Part shown: piece after piece, positions 11,193-64,000 of the stretch
How positions within the stretch are numbered: position 1 is the first letter of the stretch
Layout of the letters: each line of letters starts with the position of its first letter
DNA from: Trypanosoma brucei
Taxonomy: Eukaryota
Reading direction: 5' to 3'
DNA length: 64,000 nt
Assembly (NCBI GenBank): GCA_000002445.1
Contig: AE017150.2
Location: forward strand, 160,001 to 224,000
The notes under the pieces: model-generated
The model's database searches: none
Told to the model about the DNA's origin: nothing
Seen by the model: only the letters and a program-made list of their open reading frames with translations
Made by a program: the position numbers and the translations under genes

Positions 11193-14100
11193 GTAACACG
11201 GTTAAATTATTGGGTCGCATCCGGACCGTATTGCATCATGACAAATATGATGTTACCATTTAAAAAATAAGTAGCAATAGTAGTAGGGAGAAAGCTATTG
11301 TTTTTTCTCACTCCTGCTGCCGCGTACATCATGCGTGATACAACAGTTTTCATTTATTCTATAGTAGATTTTTTCACATAGCAAGGGATACTCGGAATTG
11401 TTGTATAACTTTCGTTGTCCCAGCAATACTGTCTGCTTTTCATGGTTAAACTAAAACTCCAATGAAATCACATTGTTGTGTCATCTTTTGTGAGTCACCA
11501 ATGATGGTTGTGCCCCACATTTCTTCATGCTGGTAACTATTTTGTTTCCACGACATTTAACCACGTCATGTGCCTCACACTAATAAATATGTTGCAGATC
11601 CATGTTTGAGTCCTCAATCTTTCAGGGGTCGCCTGCTGCAGCCTCACGACATCGGCGTCTTCTGAAAAGACCCTTGTGATGGTGTGTGAAACTCCAGGAT
11701 TCTCCTTTATTAACTGATGGGGAGTCGATTCAAATTCACTAATTCCTCATTTTTGCTAACGTATCGGAACCCCACCCGAATATTCTCAGGCAACTTCACT
11801 TGGGAGGGAAATGACTTTAGATCAAACACTGCCACCGACTGGTCATGGAGAGTAATTATCAACTGGGAAAAGTGACACAATGGGACATATGCCTCATAAT
11901 CATCCCTGCTCTTTTTAGCCTTTGGTCATGCAATAAATCAACACCTTCTTCCAATTCTGTTTTTCCTCCATCACAAAGAATGGCGCACAACTCATCCTGT
12001 CATATGTCTCTCTGAAACTGGGCCAATGATACGCGATTGCTTCATTATTTGGGACTTCTTTTTTTACAATGTGCAATTCAGATTCCTTTTTTGATACTTT
12101 CTCTTTCCACATCATCTGTGCTATTCTTAATGCTCCAACCCTCATCAAATCGCTTACTCGCTGCTTGCATCATCCTCTGTCAAATCCACGGAAGGAAAAT
12201 CATTCCCACATTTATTTCCTATTGGAGAGGTGAAGTATTTTCTTTTCCTCCTCTTCCCGTGAGGTCACCTTTGTTTTCCCCTTGTGAGTGTCAAGGAATG
12301 CTGTGCAATCGATAATTTGGGAAGATATTCCCCGTTATAAGTCCCGGCTTCCCTCACACTGGGGCCGCACATTCCTTCCAATTATATCTTACATCAAAAA
12401 CATTAAAAGAACCGACTTGCTTACGGAAGCTGTCACACATCTGAGATACCACACTGTGCCTCGTGGAAGTTCCATTGTGTAGATGTGCTTTCCAAATTCT
12501 ATTAATAATATGTTGTCAATGTCGTGTTCAATTGCAACTACTGCCGCTGCGCGTGTCAGCAGTGCTCTTCTCTTTATGGAATGTTCTATCATTACGTATG
12601 GTCTTTTCAGTATGGTGTCATTTTCCCCTTTGTGGTAATGGCTATGAACTTCTTCCCCTTTCCTCCCGAGGTTCCTCCCTATGACTTTTTTCACACTGGC
12701 AATGCTCTTTTCCCAGTTGATAATTACGCATCGTGTGAGTATGTGGGTATCGCTTTTGAATTTCTTTAGAAGGTTCCCTCCCAAAAAAAAATCCACTGTT
12801 GAGGCTTTCTTTTCGTGTCAGTGTGGCACAACATTTTTCTCTTTTTTTGGGAGCTGTGTAATTTCTTTTTGCCATCGCATGGCTGGATGCAATTCATTCC
12901 ATTGATATTGCAACTGGATACCACTCTGGACGGAACTTCCTGCAAGATATTATCGAATCCCCATTACAACATGTGTTGTGTTTGTTTGATGGGTTTACCT
13001 GTTACCGTACTGTAAAGACGGACCCAAAAACAACATCCGCGTCGGTTTGTCCAATAGAGATGATGGAAGAGTTCTCCTGTACTGAAATGGCAATGGTCTC
13101 TGCGAGTCGTAAACTTACAACAACAAATAAAAGTGCAGTTGCATCCTATGCTGGAATGCGGTAATGATTTTCCGCCAATGCATAAAAACACCGCATGATG
13201 AATTCCCTGTTGCTCACATGTTTTAGTCCTCAGCTACATTCACTTTGCTATTCTATTGGCTCCTGAAACCAATGTCATGATGTACGGACAGCTTTTTGTG
13301 GGAACTGCAATAAAAATAATAATCATAATTATAATAACTCCTTTCACCAATGAGTTTACTATTGGTTGTAAAAGTGCTCTTGGTGCCACTCCATTTTTCT
13401 TTTCTTGAGTCCCCAGCTGCTGAGGGGCTGTTGTATTTTTTTTTAAAGAGTGACGCACCGTTTTATTCCCCACCCCTTTCAGGTGACTTCCTCCTGCACA
13501 GTTTTTACTTTCCCATCGTAGAATGTTTTTCAAGGTGTTTCCTTTGTGAAGCTTTGGTTATGCTATAATTAAAGACCACTCAACTCCCTCCTTCCGGGAA
13601 CTGTTGTTGCATTTATTTCCCTTTAGTTGCTGCAAATTTGTTTATTTGACAAGTTGTAGTGCGATACTTCACTTGACCATATGTGTAACATCGTGTCTCG
13701 TTGCTTTATAAAAATTCAAAAAGAACACATCAGGTGATATTCTTCTGCTCTTACTTCGTCCATTCACATCTCTTCCCGCCAGTTCGGAAACTCCCACTCA
13801 AACTCACCACTCTGTGAAGATTTGTAGTTTCCGTTAGCGATGGACGTACTGAAGTGGACATGTTTGGCACTTCAAAACTAAGTTTTTTAAACTTACACCT
13901 TCCTTCTTGCATACAGCTTCAGTGCGAGAGTAAAGGAATAGTTGAGTATCATGAGAAAACATAAGCCCAAAACATTCTCAACTCAAGCTTTCAATAAAAG
14001 CAAACACATTAAGATGGTTTAGTGAACACATGCAGTATAATCCCTAGCAAAGGTATTATTCACACCCAATAAACAACTCAAACAAATAACACCAGCATAC

Positions 14101-14884: not shown

Positions 14885-17800
14885 CTATGCATTGTTACCA
14901 CCTCTATTGTTAACTCCGTTGTTATTGTTACCTTTTACTTGCAATTCAACGTATAGTGCAGTAATGTGGTTACTAAGAGAGACCGCGAACTGACGCACTT
15001 CCTGTTCACAAAACCTTTCCTCAACCTTATTATTTTGTCCTCCGTCTTCGATTGTCCCCTCACAACATTGTGGCTTTGTAATTTTTTCGCTGTCAACCCT
15101 TTGAACATAGATTATTTCCCATACCATCCCGCGTGAAAAATTGTCCCAGCGTCTAAAGTAACTTTGCAAACACCTTTTCATCTTAAATAACCCACCGGTG
15201 CTGCAAGGATGACTACCGGAAATTGTGTACTGCAGTCCCACAAAAGTCTTCGGATTCTCAACAAAAAAGAACGCATCAACAACCGGGAAACTCCTTGATT
15301 GCGGCTTGTACAATTTCATATATTGAATTTCAGCTCCAGCTACAATTGGAACATCCTCAGGAACCACAATCAAAGGATTCGTGAGTCTTGGACCTTGCAG
15401 CACCTGCAGCACACTTTGTTGGATTTGATCCCCAGCAAATGAAAGGCCCTGTAACTCCCTTGCCAACTCAGTTAGTGTATTCTCATGTGACAATGCTTCA
15501 ATGCCACTCTTCTCAAACAGATGACCAACAATAGCGCAGTTAGACAGCAGAGCAGATATTGCAGCATATTTATTCAGTAACCAAGGCCTCAGAAAGTCTA
15601 AAATAACTTGCCCCGTGTAAGATGAAAGCGGTGTGCAGAGATACGAATCACACAGAAGATTCCCTTTCTTCACTCGAACAACCCTCACTAACCTGTGTGA
15701 TGCTTTGCGTGTTTGCCAGGTAGCTGCGTTTTGGAAAATTTTTGCGTAGCTTTCCTTCTTTACATCACTCATTTCGTTAATGGCTTCCTCGATTAGATCA
15801 CACTGCCTGGTGAACGACGCCGAATCAACAATGTGACGAAGCAGTGGGCCAACGATAGGAATGCGATCTTGAATTTCTTGCCATTCACTTTCAATTTTCT
15901 CCTTCGCATCTGAAGGATTCCAACCGTAAGCAGGAGCAATTTTCCCCCACCTCGATATGTGTATGACTTCCAAATCCTTCAATGTATCACAGTTAATGTA
16001 AAAATGTAGGGCTTTGTTTTGCTTGGACCATCCATGGAATTGTCTAACGTTTGGAGAGCTCAAGGCAATACCAGCGAAATCACCAGGTGGTTTCGTCGGA
16101 GCAGGATGATTCTTGTCCACGTCAAATATAACGTATCCCTTAATATTCTCTGCGCCACATGAATCTCTGACTATTTGGCCAATAAGCGTTGAGGCATCAT
16201 CATAATTACTGTAAAACGTAACATATCCTGCTCGATCGCCTTTGGGTTTACGAAACACATACGCCTTACCACTCACAACGTACATGATAATCTAAAGCTG
16301 ACTCGATTCATAATGCAGTAGTTTGTATAACAGTATTATTTTTTTTGGAATTTTCTTCGTGCCTTCGTGAGAGTTTCTCCCAACTGGCGGGGCCATCAGC
16401 CATCACCGTAGAGCCCTGAGATGCTATCGGTCTGGCGACTGTGGCAGAGTCTCCCTTTTTCATTCATCCTAACACACCCTCTATAATTTTTGTTGTATTT
16501 CCGCATATGAACGGAATACAGCAGATGGGGCGAGAAGCCCCCCTCACCCCGGACTCTCCAAAAGATGTCAATTAGCAATCCTTTTGTTTTGATTTTTGTT
16601 ATTCGTTTATTATTCTCTCCCCCTCTTTCTGTTTCTGTTGCTTGTTGATTGCATACCCCCTCTGTCTCTAAGGGTGTCTGGACTATTCCTGCGTCCTGTG
16701 CTTTTCCTGCTAGCTCCACACTCGGCAATAAGGGGGGAAGTTGCAGAAGGGAGAGTGGGTTGTATGACTGTTACCTTAGGTGAGGACTTCACCTGCGGCC
16801 GGCTCCGTTCAACCGCAATGAGAAATTGCGCCAGCATTTAAGAGAAACATACATGCTGCACACACTCACCTTCTACCGCAAACCTGACACGTAACTCCTT
16901 CAAACCTGGACAGCTCATCAAGTGCAGCGACGTTTCTTCGCAGTCGCCGCGTTGGCTGGTAACAGCGCGCTCTACCTTCATACCGTTCATCTTCTTTTGA
17001 TGGAGGGTGAGGCCAGTTTTGCTAGCACACTGCCTTCCGCATGTCGGGCACACCAACATGGATGTGTTTTTATGCGGGGAATCAGTGGCACACAATTTTG
17101 TGCTTTTGCTGCATTTAAGCTCGACTCCCTCACCTTTGTGGAAAGCCTTACAGTGTCGGATGAGGGAGTCCCTGCAACTGAGCACTTTTTGGCACACACC
17201 ACACTGCACCCCGCCCTTCCCCGGGACGTCAACGTTTTCCTCACGGGCACGCTTACGAGGGAATTGCACCAACACCACGGTACCGTCCTCCGTCACTATG
17301 CTTTTATGTTTGAATTTCTTGTGTAGTGACAGGGAAGAACGTGTACCGAAGCTCGCCTCGCACAGGTCACATTGAAACGGCAGCTTCCGTGTATCCTGAG
17401 AGGCTGGCGCTGCTGGGGCTTTACCATCTCCTTGCACTGAGTCCTCGTTCTCTCGCCCCCTTTTCACGCGGCAACTGCCGCTGCCTATGCCATGTATTGT
17501 TCTAAGGTGGTGTAGTAGTCTGCCTGGCACTGCGAATTTGGAGGCACAGATGGTACAATGAAGCACCTGCGGTCTCATCGGGACTCGTGTGCTCGATGGT
17601 AGGGGAACGATCGCCACCACTGGAGGGGGCTCCGGGGGGATATCCACTGCAGGTGTTGCATCGCCGTATTTGATCCTCCGGAGGGCATCAGCTCGCACAA
17701 AGCCATGTTTGTTTACCATATGCGTTACAGCACTCGAGCGGCATTGGTATGTGGCATCACATTCCGTACATTTGGTCGGTTCGGAGGTTCTCTGAACAGT

Positions 17801-25096: not shown

Positions 25097-26844
25097 TTAA
25101 CTCAACATCATATTTCGAATCATCAGTGATAGAGCTTGGCAACTGTACGATTCGATTCCTCCAACATTTGCCTTCACTCTTATAACCTTCACCAACTTGT
25201 CCGTAACTTCATTGTTCTTCCAGGCAGCCGTATGCTCAATAATATCATTATAGGAATATTCACCCGATTTCTTCATAGTTTCCAACGCATCATGAACTCT
25301 TTTCAGACGCCATTCATAACAGCTTAAAACAAATATATAACGAGGCAAAAGCCCAATTGAATTAATACGTCCCTCCACTATTCTTTACACTCATCTTCCA
25401 TTTCCTTCCTCAATTCGTGTCTTCTTCTGTTGGACACCTTTTCCCTTGCATGTATTGACAGTTTTTTCCATGCCACAAATGCCTTCATGTCACGCACATC
25501 ATCACAGTTTATAATAATTTGGCGGCCTCCCCTATTTGTAGTCCAGTTACCAAAACGGACACTATTCGGAGAAGTGAAAATAGTTACACCCCAAACATCA
25601 GAGGGAAGTTGAGTGTAAGGCTGCTGCGTTTCGTACCTTATGTCCATAATGATGTGTCCTCTGTTTTCAAATTTCATTTTATTTATGGCGTTGACCGCAG
25701 CTCTCAAATATTCGTACCGCACAACCCTTCCCTCTTTCATCACCCTTTCTGTTATATATTAAGTAGGCGATCGTGTCTGTGAAATATGCAACAACATCAA
25801 GCATTCCTTCATGGAAGTGAAGCAATGAATGAAGCAAAAATGATCCAAGGCCACATGATTTACCAATTCCAGACGTGCCAATAACAATATGTATCAGTGG
25901 TCTGTGAGCTGTCCTTTCCACCCACCATGTCTGCAGCCCTTTTTCGCCTTTATACCACACGCGCATAATTTCACGACGGATGTATACGTGCTGAAATACT
26001 GCTTTGCGCCCCGTAGTGTAATCCAATGCAAACCTGTTGTATGGCCAACCCTTCTCCGAAGTGAGAACAAAAATTTCCAAACCATCAGGCCTCTCCTCAA
26101 TCTCTGCATCAACATTGGTAGGATCACGAGTTACATCAACCCCCGCTTCGGTCCAAATGCGCTGTGGCCTTCCATCGAACACTTTCATTCCAAGTGGCTC
26201 TTCATTATAACCCGACATCACATAACTCCATTTCGCATTATATATGGATTCATACAATCCTTTCAGTACGACAGCACCACCAGCTGTTTGGGCAGCTCGT
26301 TTCCTTGCAATGCTTCCTTGAGTGCATTATCCAACATGTTAGTGACAATAATCCAAGTCTGCTCTCCATTTCTCAGTCCACGAATATCCGCCTGTAACCT
26401 GGCCTTTACTTCCTCATTTGCTTGTTGCCACTGCTGAAGATTTAATATTCCCTCTCTGAACAACAGGGGGTAAGCAGTAGCAAAAACTTTGTACGTCCAA
26501 AAGACAGGTAGAAAAAATATATCGTCCAGTATATCCTCTCTTTCAATGTATCGCTCCGGCTTTCTGGAAAACACAAACATTGATACATTATTTTCTTCAT
26601 TCACATTATATCTTCTGCCAACATTACGCCTCAAAAAATCATTCAACATCACATTTTCAGGATGTGGCAGACCTTTCAGCAAAACTGCTTCAACGCTGCT
26701 GAAAAGACTCCATTGTGGTTGGTTATTATTCTCCACTCGTTGCTGCACTGCTGGAGGTTCCGCATCGTTACGCGCAGCCTCCTCATGCCCTCGTCTCCTT
26801 CCCTCAATGTCACCCCTTCCTTCAATAGGAACCTGTTGATTCAT
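25097..26844 (-). pseudogene. RHS pseudogene with multiple frameshifts. It is the C-truncated type that ends RNMMLS, with N-terminal type MNQQVPIEG.
   Basis: Four consecutive ORFs in different frames (26263-26844, 25679-26257, 25378-25743 and 25097-25378) together align to the 579-aa ORF at 50947-52686. Confidence 0.8.
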
Positions 26845-36317: not shown

Positions 36318-37049
36318 TTAACTCATCATCATATTTCGAATCATCAGTGATAGAGCTTGGCAACCGTACGATTCGATAACTCCAACATTTGCCTTCACTC
36401 TTACAACCTTTACCAACTTGTCCGTAACTTCATTGTTCTTCCAGGCAGCCGTATGCTCAATAATATCATTATAGGAATATTCATCCGACTTCTTCATAGT
36501 TTCCAACGCATCATGCACACTTTTCAGACGCCATTCATAACAGCTTAAACCAAATATATATAACGAGGCAGAGGTCCAATTGAATTCATACGTCCCTCCA
36601 CTATTCTTTCCACTCATCTTCCATTTCCTTTCTCAATTCGTGCCTTCTTCTGTTGGATACCTTTTCCCTTGCATGTATTGACAGCTTTTTCCATGCCACA
36701 AATGCCTTCATGTCACGCACATCATCACAGTTTATAATAATTTGGCGGCCTCCCGTATTTGTAGTCCAGTTACCAAAACGGACACTTATGGGGAAATCGA
36801 GAAACGTTACACTCCAAACATCAGAGGGAAGTTGAGTGTAAAGCTGCTGCGTTTCGTACCTTGTGTCCATAATGATGTGTCCTCTGTTTTCAAATTTTAT
36901 TTTATTTATGGCGTTGACCGCAGCTCTCGAATATTGGTACTGCACAACCCTCCCTCTTTCATCACCCTTTCTGTTATATATTAAGTAGGCGATCGTGTCT
37001 GTGAAATACGCAACAACATCAAACATTCCTTCATGGAAGTGAAGCAGTG

Positions 37050-37061
37050 AATGAAGCAAAA
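37050..37061. repeat. RIME target-site duplication, left copy (AATGAAGCAAAA)
   Basis: It is an identical 12-mer to 37590-37601, and the two copies immediately flank the element. Confidence 0.9.
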
Positions 37062-37298
37062 TTTTTTTTAGAATTTTCTTCGTGCCTTCGTGAGAGTTTC
37101 CCCCCACTGGCGCGGCCATCAGCCATCACCGTAGAGCCCTGAGATGCTATCGGTCTGGCGACTGTGGCAGAGTCTCCCTTTTTTATTCATCCTAACACAC
37201 CCTCTACAATTTTTGTTGTATTTCCGCATATGAACGGAATACAGCAGATGGGGCGAGAAGCCTCCCACCCCGGACTCTCCAAAGGATGCCAATTAGCA

Positions 37299-37336
<38 letters not shown>

Positions 37337-37589
37337 CGGAGTTCCACATCACCGGACAGCAGCATCTTAGTGCGGATGATACTGCTGATGGCACGCTGGC
37401 ACGTGCCCAGGGACCGACAAATGAAAAACGGTGTCCCAGCAAGACGCTGCTGATCCCTGTGCTGTATGATGCCGTAGCCGGAGCACAGCAGTGTTCCCCA
37501 TGAAAGGAACGCTGCTGGCTCTTGGCTTCCCCCGATGATACGGGGTACTGGACCCTGGCACCACGTTGAGGTGGCCGGCATCGCCAGGG
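37062..37589 (-). mobile_element. RIME (the ingi-derived short non-LTR retroposon), a complete copy with an A8 tail and an expanded internal A34 tract
   Basis: The 5' end on the minus strand is CCCTGGCGATGCCGGCCACCTCAACGTGGTGCCAGGGTCCAGTACCCCGTATCATCGGGGGAAGCCAAGAGCCAGCAGCG..., which is the ingi/RIME 5' signature. The 3' half is identical to the ingi 3' end at 16347-16580. It terminates in T8 on the plus strand (37062-37069). Confidence 0.85.
37303..37336. repeat. T34 homopolymer (A34 on the element strand) internal to the RIME
   Basis: It is an uninterrupted run of 34 T. The equivalent position in the second RIME copy (about 43267-43273) has only T7. Confidence 0.95.
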
Positions 37590-37601
37590 AATGAAGCAAA
37601 A
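37590..37601. repeat. RIME target-site duplication, right copy (AATGAAGCAAAA)
   Basis: It is identical to 37050-37061. Confidence 0.9.
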
Positions 37602-38472
37602 ATGATCCAACACCGTATGATTTACCAATACCAGGTGTACCAATAACAATATGTATCGGTGAATCCACCACTGCGTCATTCAGCCACCATGTTTTCAGAT
37701 CCTTTTGGATTTTATACCACACGCGCATAATTTCACGACGGATATATACATGCTGAAATGCTGCTTTGTGCCCCGTAGTGTAATCCAATGCAAACCTGTT
37801 GTATGGCCAACCTTCCTCCGAAGTGAGAACAAAAATCTCCAAACCATTGGGTCTCTCCTCAATCTCTGCATCAACATTCGCAGGAAGAGGAGTTACATCC
37901 ACCTCCGCTTCGGTCCATATGCGCCGTGGCCTTCCATTGAATACTTTCATTCCAAGTGGCTCTGTATGATAACCCGACATCACATAACTCCATTTCGCAT
38001 TATATATGGATTCATACACTCCTCTCAGTTCGACAGCACCACCAGCTGTTTGGGCAGCTCGTTCCCCCACTTCTTTGGCAATGCGCAGTGCCCTGTCCAA
38101 CTTTGTCGCTGCCACGGGACCAACAAATTCCCTTATTTCCCCTCTTCCCTTCTCCTCCCACTGACTGAGGGTGCTAATCCCATTACGAGGCAGATAAATA
38201 ACTGCCCTCAGTAATTGAAACTCATCAAGCCCCCGTATAATTCCTTGAAGCCTTGCATCCAAAATATAATCCTCCGGGCTCTGAACAAAAATGGGCATCC
38301 TAACATTTTCTGCTTCAGCCACCGCAAAAGTCCCGCCAACGAACTTCTGAATAAAGTCGTTCACTGTCATTTTACGCAAACCCGCATAATCTTCCAGCAG
38401 CACATCCCTCACCTTACTATCCATTGTCCAGTTGGGCCCCCCCTCATTTCTCTGCCGTATCTGTGGAGGCTG

Positions 38473-38496
38473 AGCAGCAGCAGCAGCAGCAGCAGC
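38473..38496 (-). repeat. (AGC)8 / (GCT)8 trinucleotide repeat encoding Ala8 in the RHS N-terminus
   Basis: It is translated as PPAPPAAAAAAAAQPP. The paralogue at about 62350 has only two Ala at this position. Confidence 0.9.
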
Positions 38497-38616
38497 AGGA
38501 GGAGCAGGCGGTACATTTTCATCCCGTGGCCTCCTCATGGGCCCTTCAATATTACCTGCCACTTGTTGGTTTGCATTATTTCCTTGTGGAGCTGCGGGAC
38601 TATTTGCTCTTGACAT

Positions 38617-40800
38617 AACTCTCTTAATATTATTAACTTAACTTCCTTTCCTTTCCTTTTTTCTCTGAAATTATAAATAACTGAAGTAAAATAATATATA
38701 AGGAAACAATAGTGTGTGAACAGTGTAACATAATATCAAATGTAATAAAGCGCGTTAATGTTTATTCACTATAGTTTGTATAATATGATATCATAATGTA
38801 TTTGGTATTGAGGGGAACAATTTCAAAATATAGCAGCTGTAAATAAATATTTCCCTTGCTTCATTATCATGTGCTAAATATAATTAACTTCCTGTATCAT
38901 TTCTTTCTAAACCATATATAATATGGAAACAAAAAATATTACTGCCTCATATACCTGCGTAAACACTTCGTATATATAATCAATATTTAAAGAGAGTCAA
39001 ATTCTATCAATTAAAATCAAGTAAAACAATAAACAATAAAATTTATGGATATTAATGAAACGAAGAAATAGAGTATCGGCACAACACATAGGGATATACA
39101 CACACATGAATACGCACTACACAACTGTTCCACTGGAGTTTCCTCACTTCTGTCAATACGTAACATTCACTTGCATTGAATAAACTCATTGAAAATATAA
39201 ATCACTTATCCCCTCCCCCGTGTATTCACTTACTTCCAAAGGAGAATATTAAATAATGTCTGTAGGACAGGTAAAAAAGAAACTGATACTCTATTTTGCA
39301 TCAGATAACCAAAAGGTATTTCCGTTTACTTTGATTATAAACAAAAACATCATTTCACCTTCAGTTAAAATAAAATTGAATTACTTGTCTACTCACTGTT
39401 CACAACTGTCATCAGCTAATTCATCCCCACATATTCACATGAATCTTATGTGCCATCGTTGTTGAATCCATTCACACATCTTCCATGATGGTGATTGCAC
39501 AACATACTGTAAATAATTGGAATGAAATTAATACAATTAATTGAGGAAACCGTAAAAGATTATCATAACATATCTTTTATTTTCCCTCCTTTCATTTACA
39601 CAAATTAAATATGTAATGAGACAATTCCCTTTCAGTACGTGTTCACACCTATTGTATCATCATTGTAAGTTTCCTATTGCTCATATACACGAAGCTACTG
39701 GAATAATAAAACAACACATTGAAACACCTTGAAAAAATATATAATAAATGTAAAAGAGGATGTATGAACTGACAGATAATAAAATGAAACACGTCTCGCA
39801 CTTTCCTTATAAATATTCAATAGTTGGTATGTTACAAATAAAAACAATTACACATTATAGAAAGGAAAGGATATAATTACATTATACACCTGTATGTGGA
39901 TATGTAACAGCGAATCATAGTAGAAATAAATTGTCTAAACACAATAGTTATGGAAGATAAAATAATTCAAAACATCAATAATATTATTCTATCAACATTC
40001 CCTTCCTTCTCCATTAAGTTTCCAAATGGTTTCAAATAATAATTCACATAATTCCATACATATGTTATGATGGGTATTGCATGCAGTACAACTTAAAGGA
40101 AGTGTAACTCATATAACATTTTCAAAAATAGGTGTTGAATGGTTGTTTGCTACCATCAATTACATTTCCAATGTCTGATTACACTTTTATATGCATGAAG
40201 GAAGTTACTGATGATAACTTTGACATGCTCGAGAATCCATAACACAAAGCGACTGCTGCATGCAATAAAAAATAAAAATATAAATAACATCCGAATTCAT
40301 TTACTGACAGATGAGTGCAAGTCATTCACCCAAACTTCATAGCTGCAGAAATAAACTCGCTGCTGCCAATAGGAAATGATCCCGCATAAATATTGAGTAT
40401 CTGAAAATGATAGCAACGGGTTTCCATTTTTGAAATATATGCATAAACTACATGAGGTATATGAAGCCATATTGGTAAAGTGTCACTACGCATGTTGCAA
40501 TTTACTATCAGAAGTGTCTGCCTTATTTTATTTCTTGTGTTAATGTAACTCATGAGTATCATTCATTATTCTTTACAATACAACTGTAAGTCATTTTGCA
40601 TTTTTACATATTTTCTTATTCCCTCATACTGGAAGTGTTCCACATATGAGATTCCTCAATATCGTTCACACAATAAAAATAATTTCATTTCCTTCTGCAT
40701 TCAGTTTCTTGTGCAGCAGTGTGTGCACTAATCATTCATAAAGTTTTTAATTTGCCAAATACATCATTACGAAACTATTTTCCACAAATAAACAAACAAA
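38617..40800. repeat. C cassette, copy 1 (the upstream region of MSRANS-type RHS)
   Basis: 38617-40130 is collinear with 62485-64000. 40038-40800 is collinear with 53246-54005. Confidence 0.75.
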
Positions 40801-41605
40801 CAAACATTTTTAAATGTTGCTGTGAAACGGAAATTGAATCACGGAAAATTGTGGGGCGCACACGTAATGGGCACCATGAATGCCTCTTTGGATATTCCTC
40901 TATGGCTTTTCACCAGCATCATCAACTTACTTTTTGTGTAAAAAAAAACAAAAAAGAAATAAAGGTACAAATGCATTAATAAACCCAACTCCTCAGCAGG
41001 AAATCAAGAACAGGAAGCCACGAAAAGCGTATGGCACATATGATTTTCACCTCTCAGTTACTTGAGGTGGATCGCATGATTTACCCACCTCCTAAGAACA
41101 CACCCTCCGAGAGGCCCGATTAAAAGAAAAAAAAACGCTATGACGGTTGAAAAGACGTTTTTCATAAACCTTCACTTTATACGTGAGGATGCATAAATAA
41201 ACAATGATAACGATGAGAATGCTAACGGAAACAATGACGAACCGTGAGGATCCTAGAAAATAAAATAAAATAAAATCATCACGTACCTTCACAGTAGGGA
41301 AACTTAATAAATAACAAAATATAAATATTCCCTACACAGAGGTATAGGGAGTGTTCGTCAACTTCGTAATGCTAATCAAAAAGCCTTCAAATGTATCGAT
41401 CATTCGTGTAGTCAATCAAATAAGAAGTAATATGTACTACACGCACAAAAGCACACTTATAAAGCCTACAAACCCACTTGCCCCCTTTTAGAGAATACCA
41501 CTCTCTAGTCAGTGATAGGAGAGGTGATATTAAAAGTTTTCCCTTTATAATTATTTCTGACTCCTCAATTCGTTGCAACATAACATAACATGCAAAGATG
41601 TTGCA

Positions 41606-44441
41606 TCAGTCAGCGGGGCCACCAGCAATAGCGTTTGGTTCATCCTGGGTGATCTCCTTAACAATATTCCCTTCCATCTTCACTTGAAACTGGTTGATTT
41701 TATTCCACAACTCTGTAGTATAATCGCCTCTGCCCCCAACTGGTTCGCACTTCTGCCTCACATCGATTGGCTTGCTGTCACTGTACTGTATGTAAATTAG
41801 CTCCCATTTCAAGTTTCTTGCGAGCTTATCCCATTCACGAAACAATTGTTTCATTGCCTTGATAAACTTATCTACCTTCGTTCGTGTCGTGTGATGCGTT
41901 GGTGCCACTGTCGGCTGGAGCAGAACAATTGTTGTTGCGGTGATCGCTCTTCCTTCTCTATCAACAGCTGGCTCAGTTACAAAGAAAAAGGCGTTCACAA
42001 CGGGGAAATTTCCCTGTACAGGTCGGTAAAGGCACCCAACCTCAATGTCTTGGCCTGTCGTTTCGGGGTTAAACTGACGAAGTGAAGTTGGAACACGTCC
42101 CACGGCATTACCACTTGCCAGAGCGGATACATTTGAATCCATTTCTTCTCCAACGCGAGGGAGATACCGCAGGTGCGTCACAATCGTCTGCACAACATTT
42201 CCCATCGTGAAGGCATATATGCCCACATTTTCAAATTCATCATTGGCCTGCTCTTCTTTCCCACGAAAAACCTTCCGAAGGTAATTGTCTCGCATACATG
42301 CTGTGTCCGCCCACACTCTCAATTTCTGCTCAATATAAACGGAAACAGCTCTGTTTCTGCATTCTTCTCATTCTCAGTTACAACCCGGACCAACTTAGCC
42401 AACCTGTATGTAGTCCCGTCCTCGCGCCATTCAACTCGACCATTCAGCACCTTCATGTAGTGTTCAGCATCGCCTCTACTGATTTCCTCCAGTGCCCCAT
42501 TTATTTCTCTAACATGGTCACAATAGGGTTTGTCACCTTCCAGTACGTGGCGGGGCAGTGGGCCCACCTTCTTAATCCATCCTAATATTTTCCCCCATTC
42601 GTTCTCAAGGTTTATGATGTGAGTTTCGGTGATTTTACTTGCCTCCAACTTTGACAGCCGCCTCCACGAAACCGCAGCCTTCAGTTCCACCTTTTCATAG
42701 CAATTGATGCAAAGGAACTCGTAACCCCGTGGTTCCTTCCACTCTCTGTAGTTATTTGGATCTGGAGATGTCAACACAATTACGGGCCACGCTCCCGGCA
42801 ATTTTGTCGGTATGGGTTCATCTCTCTCTTTCGAAAAGTCGTATATAATGTAACCAAGAAGCTTTTCATCAACGAAGGCCTTCACAGCATCCAATCCATC
42901 TACTTCCTCTTCATAGAATACAACCCTTCCCGGATGATCGTTTGTCGCCCTGAAGAAAATATATGCCTCGCCCTTCACAAAATAAGCGATATTCCGCAAC
43001 AGCTCCTAATCGTAATGCAGCAACCCTTGGAGCAGAAATTTTCTTCGTGCCTTCGTGAGAGTTTCTCCCCACTGGCGCGGCCATCAGCCATTACCGCAGA
43101 GCCCTTAGATGCTATCGGTCTGGCGACTGTGACAGAGTCTCCCTTTTTTATTCATCCTAACACACCCTCTATAATTTTTGTTGTAGCTCCGCAGTTGAAC
43201 GGAATACAGCAGATGGGGCGAGAAGCCTCCCACCCTGGGCTCTCCCAAAGATGTCAATTAGAAATCCTTTTTTTGGAGTTCCACATCACCGGACAGCAGC
43301 ATCTTAGTGCGGATGATACTGCTGATGGCACGCTGGCACGTGCCCAGGGACCGACAAATGAAAAACGGTGTCCCAGCAAGACGCTGCTGATCCCTGTGCT
43401 GTATGATGCCGTAGCCGGAGCACAGCAGTGTTCCCCATGAAAGGAACGCTGCTGGCTCTTGGCTTCCCCTGATGATACGGGGTACTGGACCCTGGCACCA
43501 CGTTAAGGCAGATTCATTCTTAGTGTAAGCTAAATACTCGCTGGCCGCGGGGATCGATTCCGGTACTATCTGCGACGACCAATCTACTTAACCACTAAAC
43601 CAGCGTAAGCCGAATATAATAGCCAGCACCAACTGATTTCCCAATACCTGCACTGCCGACGAGGACGCAAGGAATCTGTTTTTCGATCAGCCCTGACTCC
43701 AGCCACAAATCCAGCCTGTGCTTCACAAGATACCACACTCTCATTACCTCTCGACGAATGTACACATCCCGGTCAAACACGTAGTCTCCTGGTTCCTCCG
43801 CATCCTCTTGAATTGCATGTTCCGGAATGCTGAAAGAGTTATATGGCCAACTCTTCTGCGAGGTGAGCACAGCAATCTCTAAATTACCGTGACGAGGCAG
43901 TGGGTCGCACAAGTCATAAGGCGTGTGACTGACATTCACCTCCTCTTCTGTCCACAACTCGGGCTCGCCGTCACTATTACCCACCACCTTCATGCCAAGA
44001 GGTAAATCATTGTGACCCGACTCTACATAACCCCACGTCGCATTATATATAGAATCATATACTCCTTCAAGGTTTACAGCACCAGCAGCTGTTTGGTCAG
44101 CTTGCTTTTCCTTGCTTCTTTGGAAATGCGCAGTGCACTGTCCAACTTCGCCGCTGCAGTGAGGCAACAAGTTCCCTTATTTGCGCTGTTGCCCTCTCTT
44201 CCCAGTGCTGCATGTCTTCAATTCTATTACTAGGAGGGTAAATAACTGCCCTCGGTAATTGAAACTCGTCAGTATCCTGTATATCCTCAAGAATCTCGGC
44301 ATCAACATTAATATATCTTCTGAGATTATTAACAAACACATCCATGGACACATTCTCTGTGTTATACGTGTTTGAGGAAAACTGATTCAAAAAGTCATGC
44401 AGTTTCATTTCACCCAAACTCGCATAATCTTCCAGCAGCAC
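41606..44441 (-). pseudogene. RHS pseudogene interrupted by a 5'-truncated RIME. It is a composite of a C-part (41606-43024, one frameshift near 42320, C-terminus ...AGGPAD), the RIME, a filler and an N-part (43595-44441).
   Basis: The C-part ORFs 42319-42999 and 41606-42322 align to RHS from LLQGLLHYD/AYFVKGEAYIF to the C-terminus. The N-part ORFs 43595-44170 and 44097-44441 align to the RHS N-terminus up to GIGKSVGAG. Confidence 0.8.
43025..43508 (-). mobile_element. RIME copy 2. It has no poly(A) tail, its 5' end is truncated by about 18 nt, and its internal A-tract is 7 nt.
   Basis: It is identical to the RIME at 37062-37589 apart from its ends. It is followed on the 5' side by about 85-110 bp of unassignable sequence (43509-about 43615) before RHS resumes. 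Confidence 0.8.
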
Positions 44442-47567: not shown

Positions 47568-50500
47568 TTCACTCTCTGAATAATAATCTTAATTGAGTGT
47601 GTTGTGTTATTTCCTTTCTTTGTAACATAAATTAAAAAAGAATTAAGATGAGAGAATTTAAAATGGATACGCTTCTAAACCAAATCAAATATACAAAAAT
47701 GAATATTAGGAATTAATATGGCAGATGGAAACTATTTATTGAAATTAGGATTCAATACAAATCTTATCATGTGTTGGGGTGTCACGGCAACTTAAGCACA
47801 AATAAGGTATGACAGTATGAATAAACATTTCTGTTTGGAGGAAAACTCAAACAACAATTCTCAGCTACTGCACACCATCATTCCAGAAAAAATAATATAC
47901 TTAGATATATTTATGTATTGAAAAGCAAAAAAATAAATAAATGTGGCATTGCCATGAAAAATGGGAAACAATAGCTTTACTCATAAGCTATGTAAAACGT
48001 AGAATACTCGATTAAAGTTACTCATGTGCATGATGAAGGCGCTTCACATTAAGAAATAGTACAAACAACTATCAGAACTTGCGCATAATCTCACATGAGC
48101 CGTCACTCGGAATGACATTTTGTCATAACTTCCTAATGTGGAAAAACTATTTCTAATGCCAACTCTCACGCTCCGAATCAGTACACAGTGTGCAAATGAG
48201 AGTACGAGATATCAAAACAATAATAATCGCCGTAAAAAGTAAAACCAATGAAAATAAAATCTTATACATCAAAGAGGAACCTCTCTCACCTGACGAACAA
48301 ATGCTGCTCACTTTCTTTATTCTTTATTTAAGTGATCCTGTGTTTTTTTTTCTTGCAACCATGGAGCCATGAATCTAAGAAATATATATATGTGAAGGCA
48401 TGAAAGATATTTGTTTTGCTTTGGTATTGGAGCACCTTGCCATGCGTCTGCTTTTGCGCCTTGGTGAAACTCAAAAGAAACGAAAGGCTCACGGAAGGGA
48501 ACAAATATATTTGTGGGAATAATAATTAAATATTAGGCCTCTTTTGAGGAGTGTGTTGAGTGTAATAATGGTGAAAAAGAAGTATTGAAAATTTATGCCA
48601 CATGGACAAATGCTTTACAATGTTTTCTCTCTATCTGAAAATATGGAATATATGGAATATATAAGGAACCAGAAACATAGGGAATATATGAAGTATAAGG
48701 AAATATATCAAATATAAGAAAATATTTGAAATATATGGAAAACATATGAGAGGCAAAAAGAATGGAAAGAAATTTGGTAAATGAATATACATTCATGGAA
48801 ATATCCATTAGAGAAATAATAATTTTCTTTTTCTCCTCCCTTCCCGCTAATGTTTCACCCGCTTATTTCCATTCCTTATAAATATTGTAAATTTCTTTTT
48901 GTTACTGTAACTATTTCCAAAAAAAAAGTGTAAGTAAGACACTTTAAGCATTACATATCATAATATCTCTAAACTCCTTCTATGTTATGTTAATCTACTA
49001 ATATTTTCATTCCCATTCATTTTATTCAGCAGAACATACAAAACCCCCTCAAAAGTCCTTCCTTGTTTTTTTCTTCAACATCATAACATATCTTGTGGAA
49101 TATACAAATATATAATAACCATAAATGTGTTATATATCATCACAACATCAGAAGCTTCACGACATAATTGTGTTCCTCAAGAAGCAGTGGTTGTGTTTCC
49201 TTTTATTTTATCTCATAGTCAAACTAATTAATTAATTACTAATAACATCCTCCAAAGATATTGCTTCTATTTTCTTGGATTGTTCAGCAGCGTAACACCG
49301 GAGTCTTGAAATAAAGAGTCACAGTTCAAAGAATACAAAACAGTAAAAAAAAAATAATAAACAGAGACTCGCACCTTCACAATTGGTTGCATTTGGATGC
49401 ATCAAACATATTTATTCGCCTCCTTGTGTTTTTTTTTTGGGGGTGGGAGGAGTAAATGCAAAATTATATCAAGTTGACGAGTAGTAGAAATACAACACTT
49501 GATATAATTTCACTTACATATAAGCTTTCTTTTCCCACTTTATTCCAATTCATAATATTTTGATAGCAATGTAATGCAGCATTCAGCTATAAACATTTTA
49601 ACCATAAATATAGTAACTAATGTGTGAATGGTAACCCATGGCGATACATTCCATATGGAACAATACCACATTGTTAAATATACGCATGGAATTAAAACTA
49701 TAGCACTAAATTGAAAATGAAAAATTAAAAGAGAAAAAGATATGAATTATCAAAAGAGGCATATTCTTCACTAAGATGCACTTGTTTCAATACAATCATA
49801 ATTTGAAATTACTTTAAATAATAAGTGGCCCAATATCCTGAAACGACACAATAACAATGATTTCATTATAGCATCTGTAAAATAATGATATGCAATAAAA
49901 TAAATAATAAAAATAAATTAAAATACAGCAAGCAGTGCAGAATATATTCTATTGCTATATATAAACATTTGCCAACAGATGAATACCTTTACGCATTGGA
50001 AGAAAATAATTAAATTCAAACTTCCAATGATTCTGCCCAGTGTTTGTCGGCTACATGTGGGACTCAAAAAAAAACAAAAATTTATTTTAAATAAACATGA
50101 AAAAAAGAAAAACTTCGCATGAAACCATAAGGGTACCCCTGTGAGTTATTCGCTACTGTCAAACATAGTTAACTTCACAACCCTCAAGAAAGAAAGAATT
50201 AAATAATAAAAGTAAAAGTAAAATTTCAAGTTAAAAAAATAAAAATAAAAATTAAGGAAATATAACATAATTATGCTTAACTAACTGTAATGTGAGGAAT
50301 GTAAAAATAACAAAATGTTACTCACAATTTAATGTTATCAATGTTTTCCTTCACAAACAAAAACTGTCACATCTCAATGTGTTCCTTCAAATTAATGTAA
50401 AGGAACCAGATATGTTTGTATAATATTCTACAATGTCATTTGGCATTGTCCGATGCTCACTCAAAAAAAAAAACTTATTCGTTTTGTTGCGATGTAGCTG

Positions 50501-50946
50501 TTGACAGTGTTGTGCTCTTTTTCTTTTTTTTTATTTTTTTTAACATACCGCTCCGCACTTCCGTAATCCCCTCAATATTCCTGCAGTTCCCATCATAAAA
50601 GATACAAAAGAAATCCATCAAAATAAAGTAACTGAAGTCCAAGATGCTGTAGATCGCAATGTATTTATTTTGAATAATGGAACCCTGTGATATCAAAGAC
50701 AATCATCTGCAATGAATAAACTGAAACATTCACTGACTCATGCCACTAAAATAATAATTAAATTGTTAAACACATGTTCCCATCGTGTGGTAAGTAATTC
50801 AAACAATTCTGTGACCACATGAAATACTCGAAGAAAAAGGAAACGTATACAATGCATAAGCCATTAGTAAAGTATAAATACAGTTTTTGGTATCGAATCC
50901 ATCATATGTTACAAAGCCGCATTTCACTAACACACAAGAGCACAAT
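47568..50946. repeat. S cassette, copy 3
   Basis: It is collinear with S1 and S2. Confidence 0.8.
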
Positions 50947-52686
50947 TTAACTCATCATCATATTTCGAATCATCAGTGATAGAGCTTGAAATTTAAATGA
51001 TTCGATAAATCCAACATTTCCCTTTACTCTTACAACCTTTACCAACTTTTCCGTAACTTCATTGTTCTTCCAGGCAGCGGTATGCTCAATAATATCATTA
51101 TAGGAATATTCATCCGACTTCTTCATAGTTTCCAACGCATCATGAACTCTTTTCAGACGCCATTCATAACAGCTTAAAACAAATATATAACGAGGCAAAA
51201 GCCCAATTGAATTAATACGTCCCTCCACTATTCTCCACTCATCTTCCATTTCCTTCCTCAATTCGTGTCTTCTTCTGTTGGATACCTTTTCCCTTGTATG
51301 TATTGACAGTTTTTTCCATGCCACAAATGCCTTCATGTCACGCACATCATCACAGTTTATAATAATTTGGCGGCCTCCCGTAATTGTAGTCCAGTTACCA
51401 AAGTGGGAACTATTCGGGGAAGTGAAAATAGTTACACTCCAAACATCAGAGGGAAGTTGAGTGTAAAGCTGCTGCATTGCATACCTTATGTCCATAATAA
51501 TGTGTCCTCTGTTTTCAAATTTCATTTTATTTATGGCGTTGACCGCAGCTCTCAAATATTCGTACCGCACAACCCTCCCTCTTTCATCACCCTTTCTGTT
51601 ATATATTAAGTAGGCGATCGTGTCTGTGAAATATGCAACAACATCAAGCATTCCTTCATGGAAGTGAAGCAACGAATGAAGCAAAAATGATCCAAGGCCA
51701 TATGATTTACCAATACCAGGTGTACCAATAACAATATGTATCGGTGGTCTGTGAGCTGTCTTTTCCACCCACCATGTTTTCAGATCTTTTTCGACTTTAT
51801 ACCACACGCGCACAATTTCACGACGGATGTATACGTGCTGAAATACTACTTTGCGCCCCGTAGTGTAATCCAATGCAAACCTGTTGTATGGCCAACCTTT
51901 CTCCGAAGTGAGAACAAAAATCTCCAAACCATCGGGTCTCTCCTCAATCTCTGCATCAACATTCGCAGGAAGAGGAGTTATATCCACATCTTCTTCGGTC
52001 CACATGCGCTGCGGCCTTCCATCGAACACTTTCATGCCAAGTGGCTCTGTATGATAACCCGACATCACATAACTCCATTTCGCATTATATATGGATTCAT
52101 ACAATCCTTTCAGTTCGACAGCACTACAAGCTGTTTGAGCAGCTCGTTCCCTTGCTTCATTGAGTGCATCATTCAACATGTTAGTGACAACAATCCAAAG
52201 GCGCTCTCCATCTCTCAGTCCACGAATATCCGCCTGTAACCTGACCTTTGCTTCCTCATCTGCTTGTTGCCAGCGCTGAAGATTCAATATTCCCTCATCC
52301 TCAAAGAAACCATAGACGCTGACAAAACGTTTGTACACTTTATACTCTGTTGTCGCGAATATTCGATTGAGCGCATTAACGTCATTAATATACTCTTCAG
52401 GTTCCAGTACGAACGCAGACATTGATACATTATTTTCTTCATTCACATTATATCTTCTGCCAAAATTACGCCTCAAAAAATCATTCAACATCATATTTCT
52501 AGGATGTGGCAGACCATTCAGCAAAACTGCGTCAACGCAGCTGAAAAGACCCCATTGTGGTTGGTTGTTATTCTCCACTCGTTGCTGCACTACTGGAGGT
52601 TCCGCATCGTTACGCGCAGCCTCCTCATTTTCTCGTCTCCTTCCCTCAATGTCACCCCTTCCTTCAATAGGAACCTGTTGATTCAT
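50947..52686 (-). CDS. RHS: RHS with an intact 579-aa ORF that is C-terminally truncated relative to full-length RHS (ends RNMMMS). It is either a short RHS variant or a pseudogene.
   Basis: It is an uninterrupted ORF, MNQQVPIEG...GIGKSYGLGSFLLHSLLHFHEGM...VKVVRVKGNVGFIESFKFQALSLMIRNMMMS*. The same stop position is shared by the copies at 25097 and 36318. Full-length RHS continues for roughly 300 aa beyond this point. Confidence 0.7.
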   Translation of the reverse strand: MNQQVPIEGRGDIEGRRRENEEAARNDAEPPVVQQRVENNNQPQWGLFSCVDAVLLNGLPHPRNMMLNDFLRRNFGRRYNVNEENNVSMSAFVLEPEEYINDVNALNRIFATTEYKVYKRFVSVYGFFEDEGILNLQRWQQADEEAKVRLQADIRGLRDGERLWIVVTNMLNDALNEARERAAQTACSAVELKGLYESIYNAKWSYVMSGYHTEPLGMKVFDGRPQRMWTEEDVDITPLPANVDAEIEERPDGLEIFVLTSEKGWPYNRFALDYTTGRKVVFQHVYIRREIVRVWYKVEKDLKTWWVEKTAHRPPIHIVIGTPGIGKSYGLGSFLLHSLLHFHEGMLDVVAYFTDTIAYLIYNRKGDERGRVVRYEYLRAAVNAINKMKFENRGHIIMDIRYAMQQLYTQLPSDVWSVTIFTSPNSSHFGNWTTITGGRQIIINCDDVRDMKAFVAWKKLSIHTREKVSNRRRHELRKEMEDEWRIVEGRINSIGLLPRYIFVLSCYEWRLKRVHDALETMKKSDEYSYNDIIEHTAAWKNNEVTEKLVKVVRVKGNVGFIESFKFQALSLMIRNMMMS

Positions 52687-53245: not shown

Positions 53246-54005
53246 AATAATTCACATAATCCCATACATATGTTACGATGGGTATTGCATGCAGTACAAT
53301 TTAAAGGAAGTGTAACTCATATAACATTTTCAAAAATAAGGTATTGAATGACTGTTTGCTACCATCAATTACATTTCCAATGCCTGATTACACTTTTATA
53401 TGCATGAAGGAAGTTACTGATGATAACTTTGACATGCTCGAGAATCCATAACACAAAGCGACTGCTGCATGCAATAAAAAATAAAAATAAAAATAACATC
53501 CGAATTTATTTACTGACAGATGAGTGCAATTCATTCACCCAAACTTCATAGCTGCAAAAATAAACTCGCCGTTGCCAATAGGAAATAATCCCGCATAAAT
53601 ATTGAGTATCTGAAAATGATAGCAACGGGTTTCCATTTTTGAAATATATGCATAAAATACATGAGGTATATGAAGCCATATTGGTAAAGTGCCACTACGC
53701 ATGTTGCAATTTACTATCAAAAGTGTCTGCCTTATTTTATTTCTTGTGTTACTGTAACTCATGAGTATTATTCATTATTCTTTACAATACAACTGTAAGT
53801 CATTTTGCATTTTTACATATTTTCTTATTCTCTCATGCTGGAAGTGTTCCACATATAATATTCCTCAATATCGTTCACAAAATAAAAATAATTTCATTTA
53901 CTTCTGCATTCAGTTTCTTGTGTAGCAGTGTGTGCACTAATCATCCATAAAGTTTTTAATTTGCCAAATACATCATTACGAAACTATTTTCCACAAATAA
54001 ACAAA
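53246..54005. repeat. C cassette, partial copy 3
   Basis: It is collinear with 40038-40800. Confidence 0.7.
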
Positions 54006-54766
54006 CATACAAATCATTGGGACAATATCTTTGAGATATTTCCTTCACTATATTTGCAGTTCAGTAGTAATTAAAGGAAACTTTTTGTATAATTCAGCAC
54101 ATGGTGGAATTGCAAAGAAATGTGATAGTACTTATAATCAATAAGTTCCCAATTTTCCTCACATGGTCTCCTTTCATGCCTTTACATCCTTATATAATTC
54201 ACAGAGAATTACTGCAATTTCCTTCATATGATTTCAGGATTCCATAAGTCACAATACAAATAATATATATATATATATCCTCCTACATAATTTGCACATA
54301 ATATTGCTTAACATATAAATTATCACAAACCTATGACTTTACACTCCTCCTAAGAATAATAGAATCAAATTATTTCTATTTTGCATCATTACATGAAGCT
54401 TTGGAAAATGGAAAAAAAAAGAATCAAACAAAAGGTAATGTAAAGAACACAGTTTCATAATACAGATTATAACTTGTTTGTGAATTGCAGATGCAAACAC
54501 AAAATGTTCAAACAGGGAAACAGTAAAGGATGTTACTGATAATGTAAGCACAAATTAATCAAAAATAGAAACATAAATAAAATTGAAACTTATAAAAACA
54601 CAAAAATATATTACACAAATATTTACCACATATTATAATTCGCCACCCTCACACTTGAATTACAAAGAGGACATAATACACATATGTGGTAAAACTAATA
54701 CAACTCGAATATACGTATGTGCCATCTTATTAACATAATCATTCTAATATTTACTCAGTATGTATG

Positions 54767-62484: not shown

Positions 62485-64000
62485 AACTCTCTTAATATTA
62501 ACGTAACTTAACTTCCTTTCCTTTTCTTTTTTCTCTGAAATTATAATTAACTGAATTAAAATAATAGATAAGGAAACAATAGCGGGTGAACAGTGTAACA
62601 TAATATCAAATGTAATATAGCGCGTTAATGTTTATTCACTATTGTTTGTATAATATGATATCATAATGTATTTGGTATTAAGAGGAACAATTTCAAAATA
62701 TAGCAGCTGTAAATAAATATTTCCCTTGCTTCATTATCATGTGCTAAATGTAATATATTCCTGTATCATTCTTTTTAAACCATATATAATATGGAAACAA
62801 AAAATATTACTGCCTCATATACCTGCATCAACACTACGTATATATAATCAATATTTAAAGAGAGTCAAATTCTATCAATTAAAATCAAGTAAAACAATAA
62901 ACAAAAAATTTATGGATATTAATGAAGCGAAGAAATAGAGTATCGGCACAACACAAAGATATACACACACATGGATACACACGGTTACACAACTGCTTCT
63001 TTATATACCCTCCCCATTTTTACAATACGTAACATTCACTTGCATTGAAAGAATTTATTGAAAATATAAATCACTTATCCCCTCCCCCGTGTAATCACTG
63101 ACTTCCAAAGGAGAATATTAAATAATGTCTGTAGGACAGGTAAAAAAAACTGATAGTCTTTTTGCATCAGATAACCAGAAGGTATTTCTGTTTACTTTGA
63201 TTATAAACAAAAACATCATTTTGCCTTCAGTTAAAATAAAATTGATTTACTTGCCTCCTCACTGTTCACAACTAACAACAACTAATTCAGCCCCACATAT
63301 TCACATGAATCTGATGTGCCATGGGTGTTGAATCCATTCACACATCTTCCATGATAGCGATGATACAACATATTGTAAATAATTGGAATAAAATTAATAC
63401 AATTAATTGAGGAAACCGTAAAAGATTATCATAACACATTTTTAAATTTCACTTCCTTTCATTTACACAGATTAAATATGTAATGAGACAATTCCCTTTC
63501 AGTACGTGTCCACACCTATTGTATCATCATTGTAAGTTTCCTATTGCTCATATACACAAAGTTATTATAATAACAAAAAATAAAACAACTCATTGAAACA
63601 ACTTGAAAAAATATATAACAAATAAAGGTAATAAAGAGAATGAGCGTGAACTGACAGATAATAAAATGAAACATGTCTCGCACTTCCCTTCTAAATATTC
63701 AATAGTTGGCGGATTACAAATAAAAACAATTACACATTATAAAAAGGAAAGGATATAATTACATTATGCACCTGCATGAGGATATGTAACAGCGAGTCAT
63801 AGTAGAAATAAATTGCCTAAACACAATAGTTATGGAAGATAAAATAATTCAAAATATCAAAAATATTATTCTATCAACATTCCCTTCCTCCTCCATTAAG
63901 TTTCCAATGGTTTCAAATAATAATTCACATAATCCCATACATATGTTACGATGGGTATTGCATGCAGTACAATTTAAAGGAAGTGTAACTCATATAACAT
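62485..64000. repeat. C cassette, copy 2, cut by the window end
   Basis: It is collinear with 38617-40130. Confidence 0.75.

Follow-up and report, generated by a model that had tools for sequence, protein, structure and literature searches.

Is a retrotransposon hot spot (RHS) gene that ends far short of its long relatives a working variant of the family, or is it a fragment waiting to decay like the two related copies that share its array? The question is raised by an intact minus-strand ORF in a 64,000-nt stretch of Trypanosoma brucei DNA (contig AE017150.2, positions 160,001 to 224,000; the window hereafter), for which a sequence-only reading had offered both answers. We favor a third, with a probability of about 0.82: the ORF belongs to the RHS3 subfamily, whose normal length is ~557-593 aa, and its short length is an old, subfamily-defining trait that was inherited together with the stop codon and the 3' flank. 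The ORF, called c3 below, and its landmarks are:

50947..52686, minus strand: c3, intact RHS3-type ORF of 579 aa, with an ATG start and no frameshift

50947..50949, minus strand: TAA stop, common to the three window copies and to RHS3-type genes elsewhere

51703..51726, minus strand: Walker A motif (P-loop) GTPGIGKS, aa 321-328 of c3

51674..51686, minus strand: retroelement insertion hot spot TTTTGCTTCATTC, unoccupied in c3, five codons past the P-loop

The description of 50947-52686 as a clean 579-aa ORF with an intact P-loop holds, since GTPGIGKS stands at 51703-51726 and the frame is unbroken. The protein carries a Walker B-like HIIMD, whose aspartate is D399, and ends in ...LSLMIRNMMMS-TAA, i.e., …ALSLMIRNMMMS-TAA. 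All three curated Pfam models score above their cut-offs and place c3 in the RHS family: DUF7578 at aa 62-123 (PF24466; 77.9 bits, cut-off 27), RHS_N at aa 196-310 (PF20445; 121.5 bits, cut-off 21), and the RHSP P-loop domain at aa 318-559 (PF07999; E = 3e-57; 194.9 bits, cut-off 25), the last covering profile positions 1-238 of 312. The family hallmark, a P-loop followed some five codons on by the RIME/ingi hot spot, is present as well, at the position published for RHS genes (PMC7563717). c3 departs from the family at two of 70 conserved columns, and among 207 columns invariant in other short forms it is altered at 10, compared with 14 and 11 in its two siblings, c1 and c2. A database search returned a protein 100% identical to c3 from T. 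b. brucei TREU927 (XP_951496.1/AAQ15580.1/AAL14354.1), annotated as 'retrotransposon hot spot (RHS) protein, putative'; c3 is an already annotated gene, not a novel variant.

The ending of c3 is shared widely. An RNMMM[S/N]-stop closes CAD21755/Q8WPQ6 (576 aa), which was deposited as 'retrotransposon hot spot protein, RHS3', and the same LMIRNMMM[S/N] terminus is found in XP_827717 (590 aa), CAJ16176 (586 aa), five neighboring genes on one 1.59-Mb TREU927 contig (XP_844176-80; 557-572 aa), T. b. gambiense XP_011777175 (593 aa), and two T. b. equiperdum proteins (447 and 546 aa); another T. b. equiperdum protein (P0008, 585 aa) is 99% like the gambiense one and stops 8 residues earlier. At least nine intact genes (P0007, P0009, P0010, P0045-P0050), distributed over several TREU927 contigs, gambiense, and equiperdum, have the shared stop. 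PMC6393297 and PMC3683921 define subfamilies RHS1-6 by their C-termini, and in this part c3 is of the RHS3 type, with a windowed identity of 82-98% to CAD21755 over aa 441-579. Nucleotide similarity of c3 to the other subfamilies stops at ~nt 1382, and RHS3 thus has a subfamily-specific C-terminal stretch of its own. The proposal that c3 lacks the C-terminal subfamily domain is therefore right only in that it lacks the ~280-residue module of the long forms. The RHSP profile draws the same line: matches end at 238-248 of 312 in all short forms and at 305-312 in all long subfamilies tested, as they do in three long intact ORFs of the window.

RHS3 is also a subfamily with a record of expression. 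Both life stages express RHS1-6, and five of the six subfamilies are reported to be nuclear (PMC6393297, citing Bringaud 2002). Tb927.4.300 has been named as RHS3 and its transcript figures in RNA-seq data (PMC7952579), and the RT-PCR signal of Tb927.2.1180, described as the chromosome 2 'RHS3 gene', rises after Dicer knock-down (PMC3683921). We infer that Tb927.2.1180 is XP_951496, since no other short-form protein among the hits lies on the contig of c3, which at 1,193,948 bp has the size of chromosome 2.

Searching the window with the c3 ORF by BLASTN recovers the two siblings, which lie with c3 in a one-strand array spanning 14.9-62.6 kb and holding nine or more RHS genes and pseudogenes of several subfamilies. 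A leucine-rich-repeat gene and an RHS fragment occupy the opposite strand at the left end of the window, no tRNA genes were found in the window, and it contains two short tandem repeats, neither relevant to c3. The siblings, the retroelement in one of them, and the flank that all three copies share are:

25097..26844, minus strand: c1, sibling pseudogene with the header type and the stop of c3, ending RNMMLS-TAA

36318..38616, minus strand: c2, sibling pseudogene split by a RIME, ending RNMMMS-TAA

37062..37588, minus strand: RIME inside c2, 527 bp, in gene orientation, with an A-rich end

48785..50946, minus strand: 3' flank of c3, part of a duplicated unit, ~2.1 kb, 94-98% identical among the three copies

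Three earlier statements about this trio can be taken together. That all end at the same codon (RNMMMS or RNMMLS) is borne out by the identical TAA in c1, c2, and c3. That the copies at 25097 and 36318 are frameshifted or RIME-disrupted is likewise correct: c1, 90.1% identical to c3 over the full 1740 nt, has three frame-breaking insertions relative to it (+5, +1, and +2 nt), and c2, whose segments 36318-37061 and 37589-38077 are 92.6% and 90.6% identical to c3 by BLASTN, bears a 540-nt insertion and two 2-bp insertions. That the three are copies of one 579-aa form applies to c1 and c3 and fails for c2, which has a canonical RHS3-type N-terminus (MSRANSPAAPQ...), is only 51% identical to c3/c1 over its first ~524 nt, and is homologous to them over nt 525-1740 only; with a different N-terminus in c2, the three cannot be copies of a single 579-aa form. 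One 2-bp insertion, at c3 coordinate 51236, is common to c1 and c2, and because the frame of c3 agrees with that of the other family members, the two siblings share a derived frameshift. Each sibling has accumulated at least three lesions, against none in the 1740 nt of c3.

The RIME in c2 is bracketed by a perfect 13-bp target-site duplication, TTTTGCTTCATTC, at 37589-37601 and 37049-37061, and this 13-mer is identical to the unoccupied hot spot of c3. The body of the element starts CCTGGCGATGCCGGCCACC…, which we take to be the RIME/ingi 5' end. RIME/ingi sequences lie at the same relative codon in three members of the array, c2 and two further pseudogenes.

The homology among the copies extends well past their coding regions. 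Window positions 53080-48785 match 27242-22941 at 92% over 4.3 kb, and 51686-48785 match 37061-34139 at 93.6%; overall, similarity from copy to copy is 90-94% over 1.7-4.3 kb, far above chance. The stop shared by c1, c2, and c3 derives from this larger duplicated unit. The DNA compared outside the window came from gambiense and equiperdum loci, and there the homology persists: between the c3 unit and the T. b. gambiense locus L001, identity is 89.6% over a stretch that starts at CDS nt 541, crosses the stop, and runs on for 1.4 kb, which implies that the stop and the 3' flank predate the spread of these paralogues. A tblastn search with 14 long-form C-termini (word size 2, E < 0.01) detected no remnant of the long-form module beyond the stop of the short form. 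Past the TAA, a weak in-frame resemblance to long forms extends for ~9 codons only (S*IVLLCVSEM vs ICTLFGILIVEM), which is compatible with, and no proof of, an ancestral nonsense mutation. RHS3 could have arisen in this way, by a premature stop in a long-form ancestor followed by loss of the downstream coding sequence.

Could the three copies, or the open frame of one of them, be products of misassembly in a repetitive, subtelomere-like array? The region is indeed highly repetitive, with units 90-97% identical, yet collapsed duplicates would not differ by 5-10% and by distinct indels, a RIME, and different N-termini, and the c3 protein has two independent depositions, one based on a BAC (AAL14354) and one on the finished chromosome (AAQ15580). 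The distinctness of the copies and the independent depositions led us to reject an assembly artefact, for which we see next to no chance.

We compared codons 181-579 of five intact short-form genes (c3, one from gambiense, and three from equiperdum) and obtained pairwise omega values of 0.34-0.46, with dS of 0.33-0.50 between sublineages and a synonymous excess significant at p = 1e-5 to 1e-7. A very close gambiense/equiperdum pair differs by a dS of just 0.03, so the short form appears far older than the subspecies, and the combination of omega ~0.4, dS up to 0.5, and a stop that has been kept marks an old lineage under moderate purifying selection. These values point to a short form that is functional at the level of the family, where it corresponds to the RHS3 subfamily already described. 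The suggestion of a functional short RHS variant is in this respect sound in substance (family omega ~0.4), but the variant is neither new nor local; it is known RHS3.

The opposite suggestion, that short forms in general are a young pseudogene lineage descended from a truncated long RHS gene that was copied around, would make sense of an RHSP domain cut at 238/312, of two dead copies out of three in the window, and of the ~9 codons of long-form similarity past the stop insofar as these suggest an ancestral nonsense mutation. It is nevertheless very unlikely, and for the form overall we reject it: intact genes with the same stop occur on several chromosomes and across three subspecies; sublineages have diverged to a dS of 0.45-0.50, against 0.03 for gambiense/equiperdum, with omega ~0.4 (p ~1e-7); RHS3 figures in the literature as a nuclear subfamily that is expressed; and the cut falls just past a predicted helix-helix-hairpin, outside the NTPase core.

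Although c3 is RHS3 by its C-terminus, its N-terminus is of another kind:

52163..52686, minus strand: N-terminal header of c3 (nt 1-524, aa 1-~175), of the 'MNQQVPIEGRGD' type, as in RHS6a and the 857-aa long forms

The N-terminus usual in deposited RHS3 and in most short forms begins MSRANSPAAPQGNNAN…, whereas c3 starts MNQQVPIEGRGD…. Over aa 1-~160, windowed identity of c3 is 82-100% to RHS6a (Q8T9M4) and 65-98% to the 857-aa long forms, against just 18-40% to RHS3 CAD21755; from aa 181 onward it is 72-98% to RHS3, a range also given as 80-98% for aa 181-579. Taken as a whole, aa 1-175 of c3 are 92.6% identical to RHS6a; the best match for c1 reaches only 77.7%. Since RHS subfamilies are defined by their C-termini, a non-RHS3 header marks c3 as a mosaic member of RHS3 and does not exclude it. 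The alignments make c3 a recombinant, in which the header (aa 1-~175) came from a donor of the RHS6a/long-form type and the remainder is RHS3. Nucleotide similarity among many RHS subfamilies starts at ~nt 525, and this header/RHS_N boundary offers a possible point for homology-based recombination. Exchange on a smaller scale is visible between c3 and c1, whose nucleotide identity is 98% and 93% at the start of the CDS, drops to 66-78% in 52181-52480 (~300 bp), and then returns to 89-99%; the patch in between is a discrete conversion tract. The database search, seeded with full c3, found no other protein with its header-plus-core combination, which was seen in TREU927 only. RHS sequences of T. 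cruzi are described as mosaics of the same kind (PMC7563717).

A family under selection may still contain dead members, and the status of c3 itself has to be judged separately. Calculating dN/dS among the three copies, as the sequence-only reading recommended, yields pairwise omega values of 0.38-0.55 for the window trio and does not set c3 apart from the two dead copies. Polarized with outgroups, the private substitutions (synonymous/nonsynonymous) number 13/21 in c3, 16/24 in c1, and 20/43 in c2; the private changes of c3 (omega ~0.43) are no different from those of dead c1/c2 (Fisher p = 0.84) and give no signal of locus-specific constraint. The residues private to c3 include V292, K297, V298, E299, and F564. 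Both outgroups back only 12 of the 34 private changes of c3, so that much of the variation recurs in other paralogues, which is what gene conversion would produce. Across the three copies, identity is lower in the CDS (93-95% over nt 1001-1740) than in the first 950 bp of the 3' flank (96.6-97.6%), and an informal count of indels in CDS vs flank revealed no significant difference.

These comparisons lend some weight to the possibility, which we hold to be doubtful but a serious competitor, that c3 is a recent, still undisrupted chimera, redundant or dead, thrown up by a recombination accident in a pseudogene-rich array. Its private substitution pattern is the same as that of the dead siblings and its CDS is conserved no better than its flank; its patchy identity argues for frequent gene conversion; its chimeric form was seen in TREU927 only, in the search seeded with the full protein; 78 of the 118 annotated RHS genes are pseudogenes (PMC6393297); and ~35 random substitutions would, by a rough estimate, leave the frame free of stops ~20% of the time, which makes its openness weak evidence. 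Several features, however, speak against a gene adrift: at least three independent lesions have struck each sibling and none has struck the 1740 nt of c3, all NTPase motifs and 68/70 family-conserved residues have been kept, the retroelement hot spot is unoccupied, and the private omega is below 1 (p = 0.016), a value that imported conversion tracts could mimic. We consider it likely that c3 is itself a functional RHS3 gene. Two points go beyond what was known: c3 is a mosaic with a swapped header, and sequence analysis by itself cannot demonstrate constraint specific to it.

What, then, does an RHS3 protein keep, and what does it forgo? AF2 models of c3 (pLDDT 72.6) and of the 858-aa long relative XP_951479 (pLDDT 75.3) have identical secondary-structure elements up to the strand at 562-568, comprising a helical header (50-186), a mixed alpha/beta RHS_N domain (189-308), a P-loop core (316-443), helices (448-494), and a helix-helix-hairpin element (504-568) that, read by eye, may be winged-helix-like. 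Predicted c3 stops 11 residues past the last hairpin strand, within what is a helix (571-591) in the long form, whose helices span 571-625, with 598-625 following that first helix, and lead into a confident alpha/beta domain at 655-820; model confidence for c3 aa 500-579 is low (pLDDT 44-59). Short forms are without ~280 C-terminal residues of long RHS proteins, including positions that are invariant in the long forms (E…PVVD-GFFFV…LQxT…H…WE(I/M)IY). RHS3 keeps the complete AAA+/STAND-like NTPase core and is without the last ~70 RHSP positions and the ~230-residue alpha/beta module of the long subfamilies.

We posit that c3, situated in a tandem one-strand RHS array and adjoining two dead siblings, could encode a nuclear, nucleotide-dependent factor associated with chromatin or Pol II, like other RHS proteins, and that loss of the C-terminal module would alter its partners or activity without abolishing its function. 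It is conceivable, if quite improbable, that RHS3 proteins, and the c3 chimera in particular, are natural module-less RHS NTPases that, in chromatin and in transcription by Pol II, modulate the long RHS proteins or compete with them, and that header swaps by recombination at codon ~175 create new header-core combinations with targeting of their own. Beyond correct annotation the finding matters little: a 'truncated' RHS protein of this kind has canonical RHS3 architecture and should not be flagged as novel. With a full NTPase core and without the ~280-residue module that all other subfamilies carry, RHS3 does offer a natural domain-deletion comparison for functional studies of what RHS proteins do in transcription, and c3 documents in a T. 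brucei RHS array the header-domain swapping and patchy gene conversion already described in T. cruzi.

c3 resembles several known systems. In fold, structure comparison assigns c3 to the AAA+/STAND-type P-loop NTPases, with both Walker motifs (A and B) and a core of the ASCE type; DAP3/mS29, Cdc6/Orc1, NB-ARC, and TnsC share this fold resemblance, which is not family membership, but have only 9-14% sequence identity to c3 and other flanking domains. Another resemblance is to the Crinkler-RHS effectors, among which the literature places RHS proteins and whose dominant architecture is NTPase + HTH + REase (Zhang et al. 2016, according to PMC5289972). c3 matches this order in its P-loop NTPase followed by a helix-helix-hairpin, but no domain, and hence no REase, follows the hairpin. 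On this view, the part absent from RHS3 would be a putative nuclease-fold module; neither fold searches with whole models nor a sequence profile returned an informative match of the long-form C-terminal module to an REase.

Within the family, the long RHS proteins of ~857 aa (XP_951479 and XP_951483, on the same chromosome) and RHS6a share with c3 the header (83-93% over aa 1-175), RHS_N, and the P-loop core, and over all 579 residues c3 is 66-67% identical to the ~857-aa forms and 51% to RHS6a; the long forms differ in ~280 further residues, none of which is encoded past the stop of c3. Closest of all is RHS3 itself (CAD21755, XP_844176-80, XP_011777175), which has the same C-terminus (…ALSLMIRNMMM[S/N] + stop), the same Pfam architecture, a homologous 3' flank, and the hot-spot sequence past the P-loop, and from which c3 differs in its first ~175 residues, which are not of the RHS3 type. 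Expression in both life stages and, for five of the six subfamilies, a nuclear location are reported for RHS proteins in the literature and, by analogy, would extend to c3, a member that wears a borrowed header on an otherwise ordinary RHS3 body.

The intact 579-aa RHS3-type ORF (50947-52686, minus strand) departs from its sibling pseudogene at 25097-26844 in a discrete ~300-bp patch of the header-coding region, which specifies the N-terminal segment of RHS6a/long-form type; identity is only 66-78% across the patch (52181-52480) and 92-98% on either side. The nearest match to the ORF's version of the patch is RHS6a, and by sequence comparison the patch looks like a gene-conversion tract. This sibling and the RIME-split one at 36318-38616 carry an identical 2-bp frameshifting insertion, despite having different N-termini:

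About 25384 and about 36607: shared 2-bp insertion, at the site matching 51236 in the intact ORF

It follows that the lesion either predates the N-terminal swap and was inherited, or was passed on through gene conversion.

Two other RHS pseudogenes in the window also carry retroelements:

43037-43508: second RIME, about 91% identical to that of the RIME-split copy; its first ~17 nt are apparently missing
16339-16614: 3' half of a RIME/ingi element

After both elements the sequence stands at the same relative codon (…LL(Q/Y)xLLHY) as at the hot spot five codons past the P-loop, the insertion site that is occupied in the RIME-split copy and empty in the intact ORF.

The intergenic segment upstream of the ORF (53246-54018) is repeated upstream of the RIME-split copy (40038-40808; 96% over 773 bp), and the initial 82 bp of the segment are found once more at the window's right-hand end (63919-64000, 100%). 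The ~450 bp before the ATG are common to three other RHS genes (84-87%); together, the recurring segment and this shared stretch show the flanks to be modular as well. Among the three copies, identity over the first ~950 bp past the stop (50000-50946) is 96.6-97.6%, above the 93-95% of the coding sequence just before it (50947-51686), which points to one of two causes, homogenisation or a constrained 3' UTR. A T. b. equiperdum short-form gene (P0008, 585 aa; QSBY01000017) stops 8 residues early (…CQANSL*; region 5700-5760 of the locus), and its sequence beyond that stop departs from the RNMMMS ending; this may be due to rearrangement at the locus or to a difference in assembly.

At the left end of the window, plus-strand genes face the array:

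69-3038, plus strand: leucine-rich-repeat protein gene, 989 aa
7820-8338, plus strand: RHS fragment
14885-62601, minus strand: RHS array

Such an arrangement would place a convergent strand-switch region between about 8.4 and 14.8 kb. The array shows negative GC skew along its full length. Within the putative strand-switch region, 2 kb (11634-13613) match positions 3386-5375 of a T. b. gambiense locus at 90% identity, in the stretch 0.6-2.6 kb upstream of the short-form RHS gene there.
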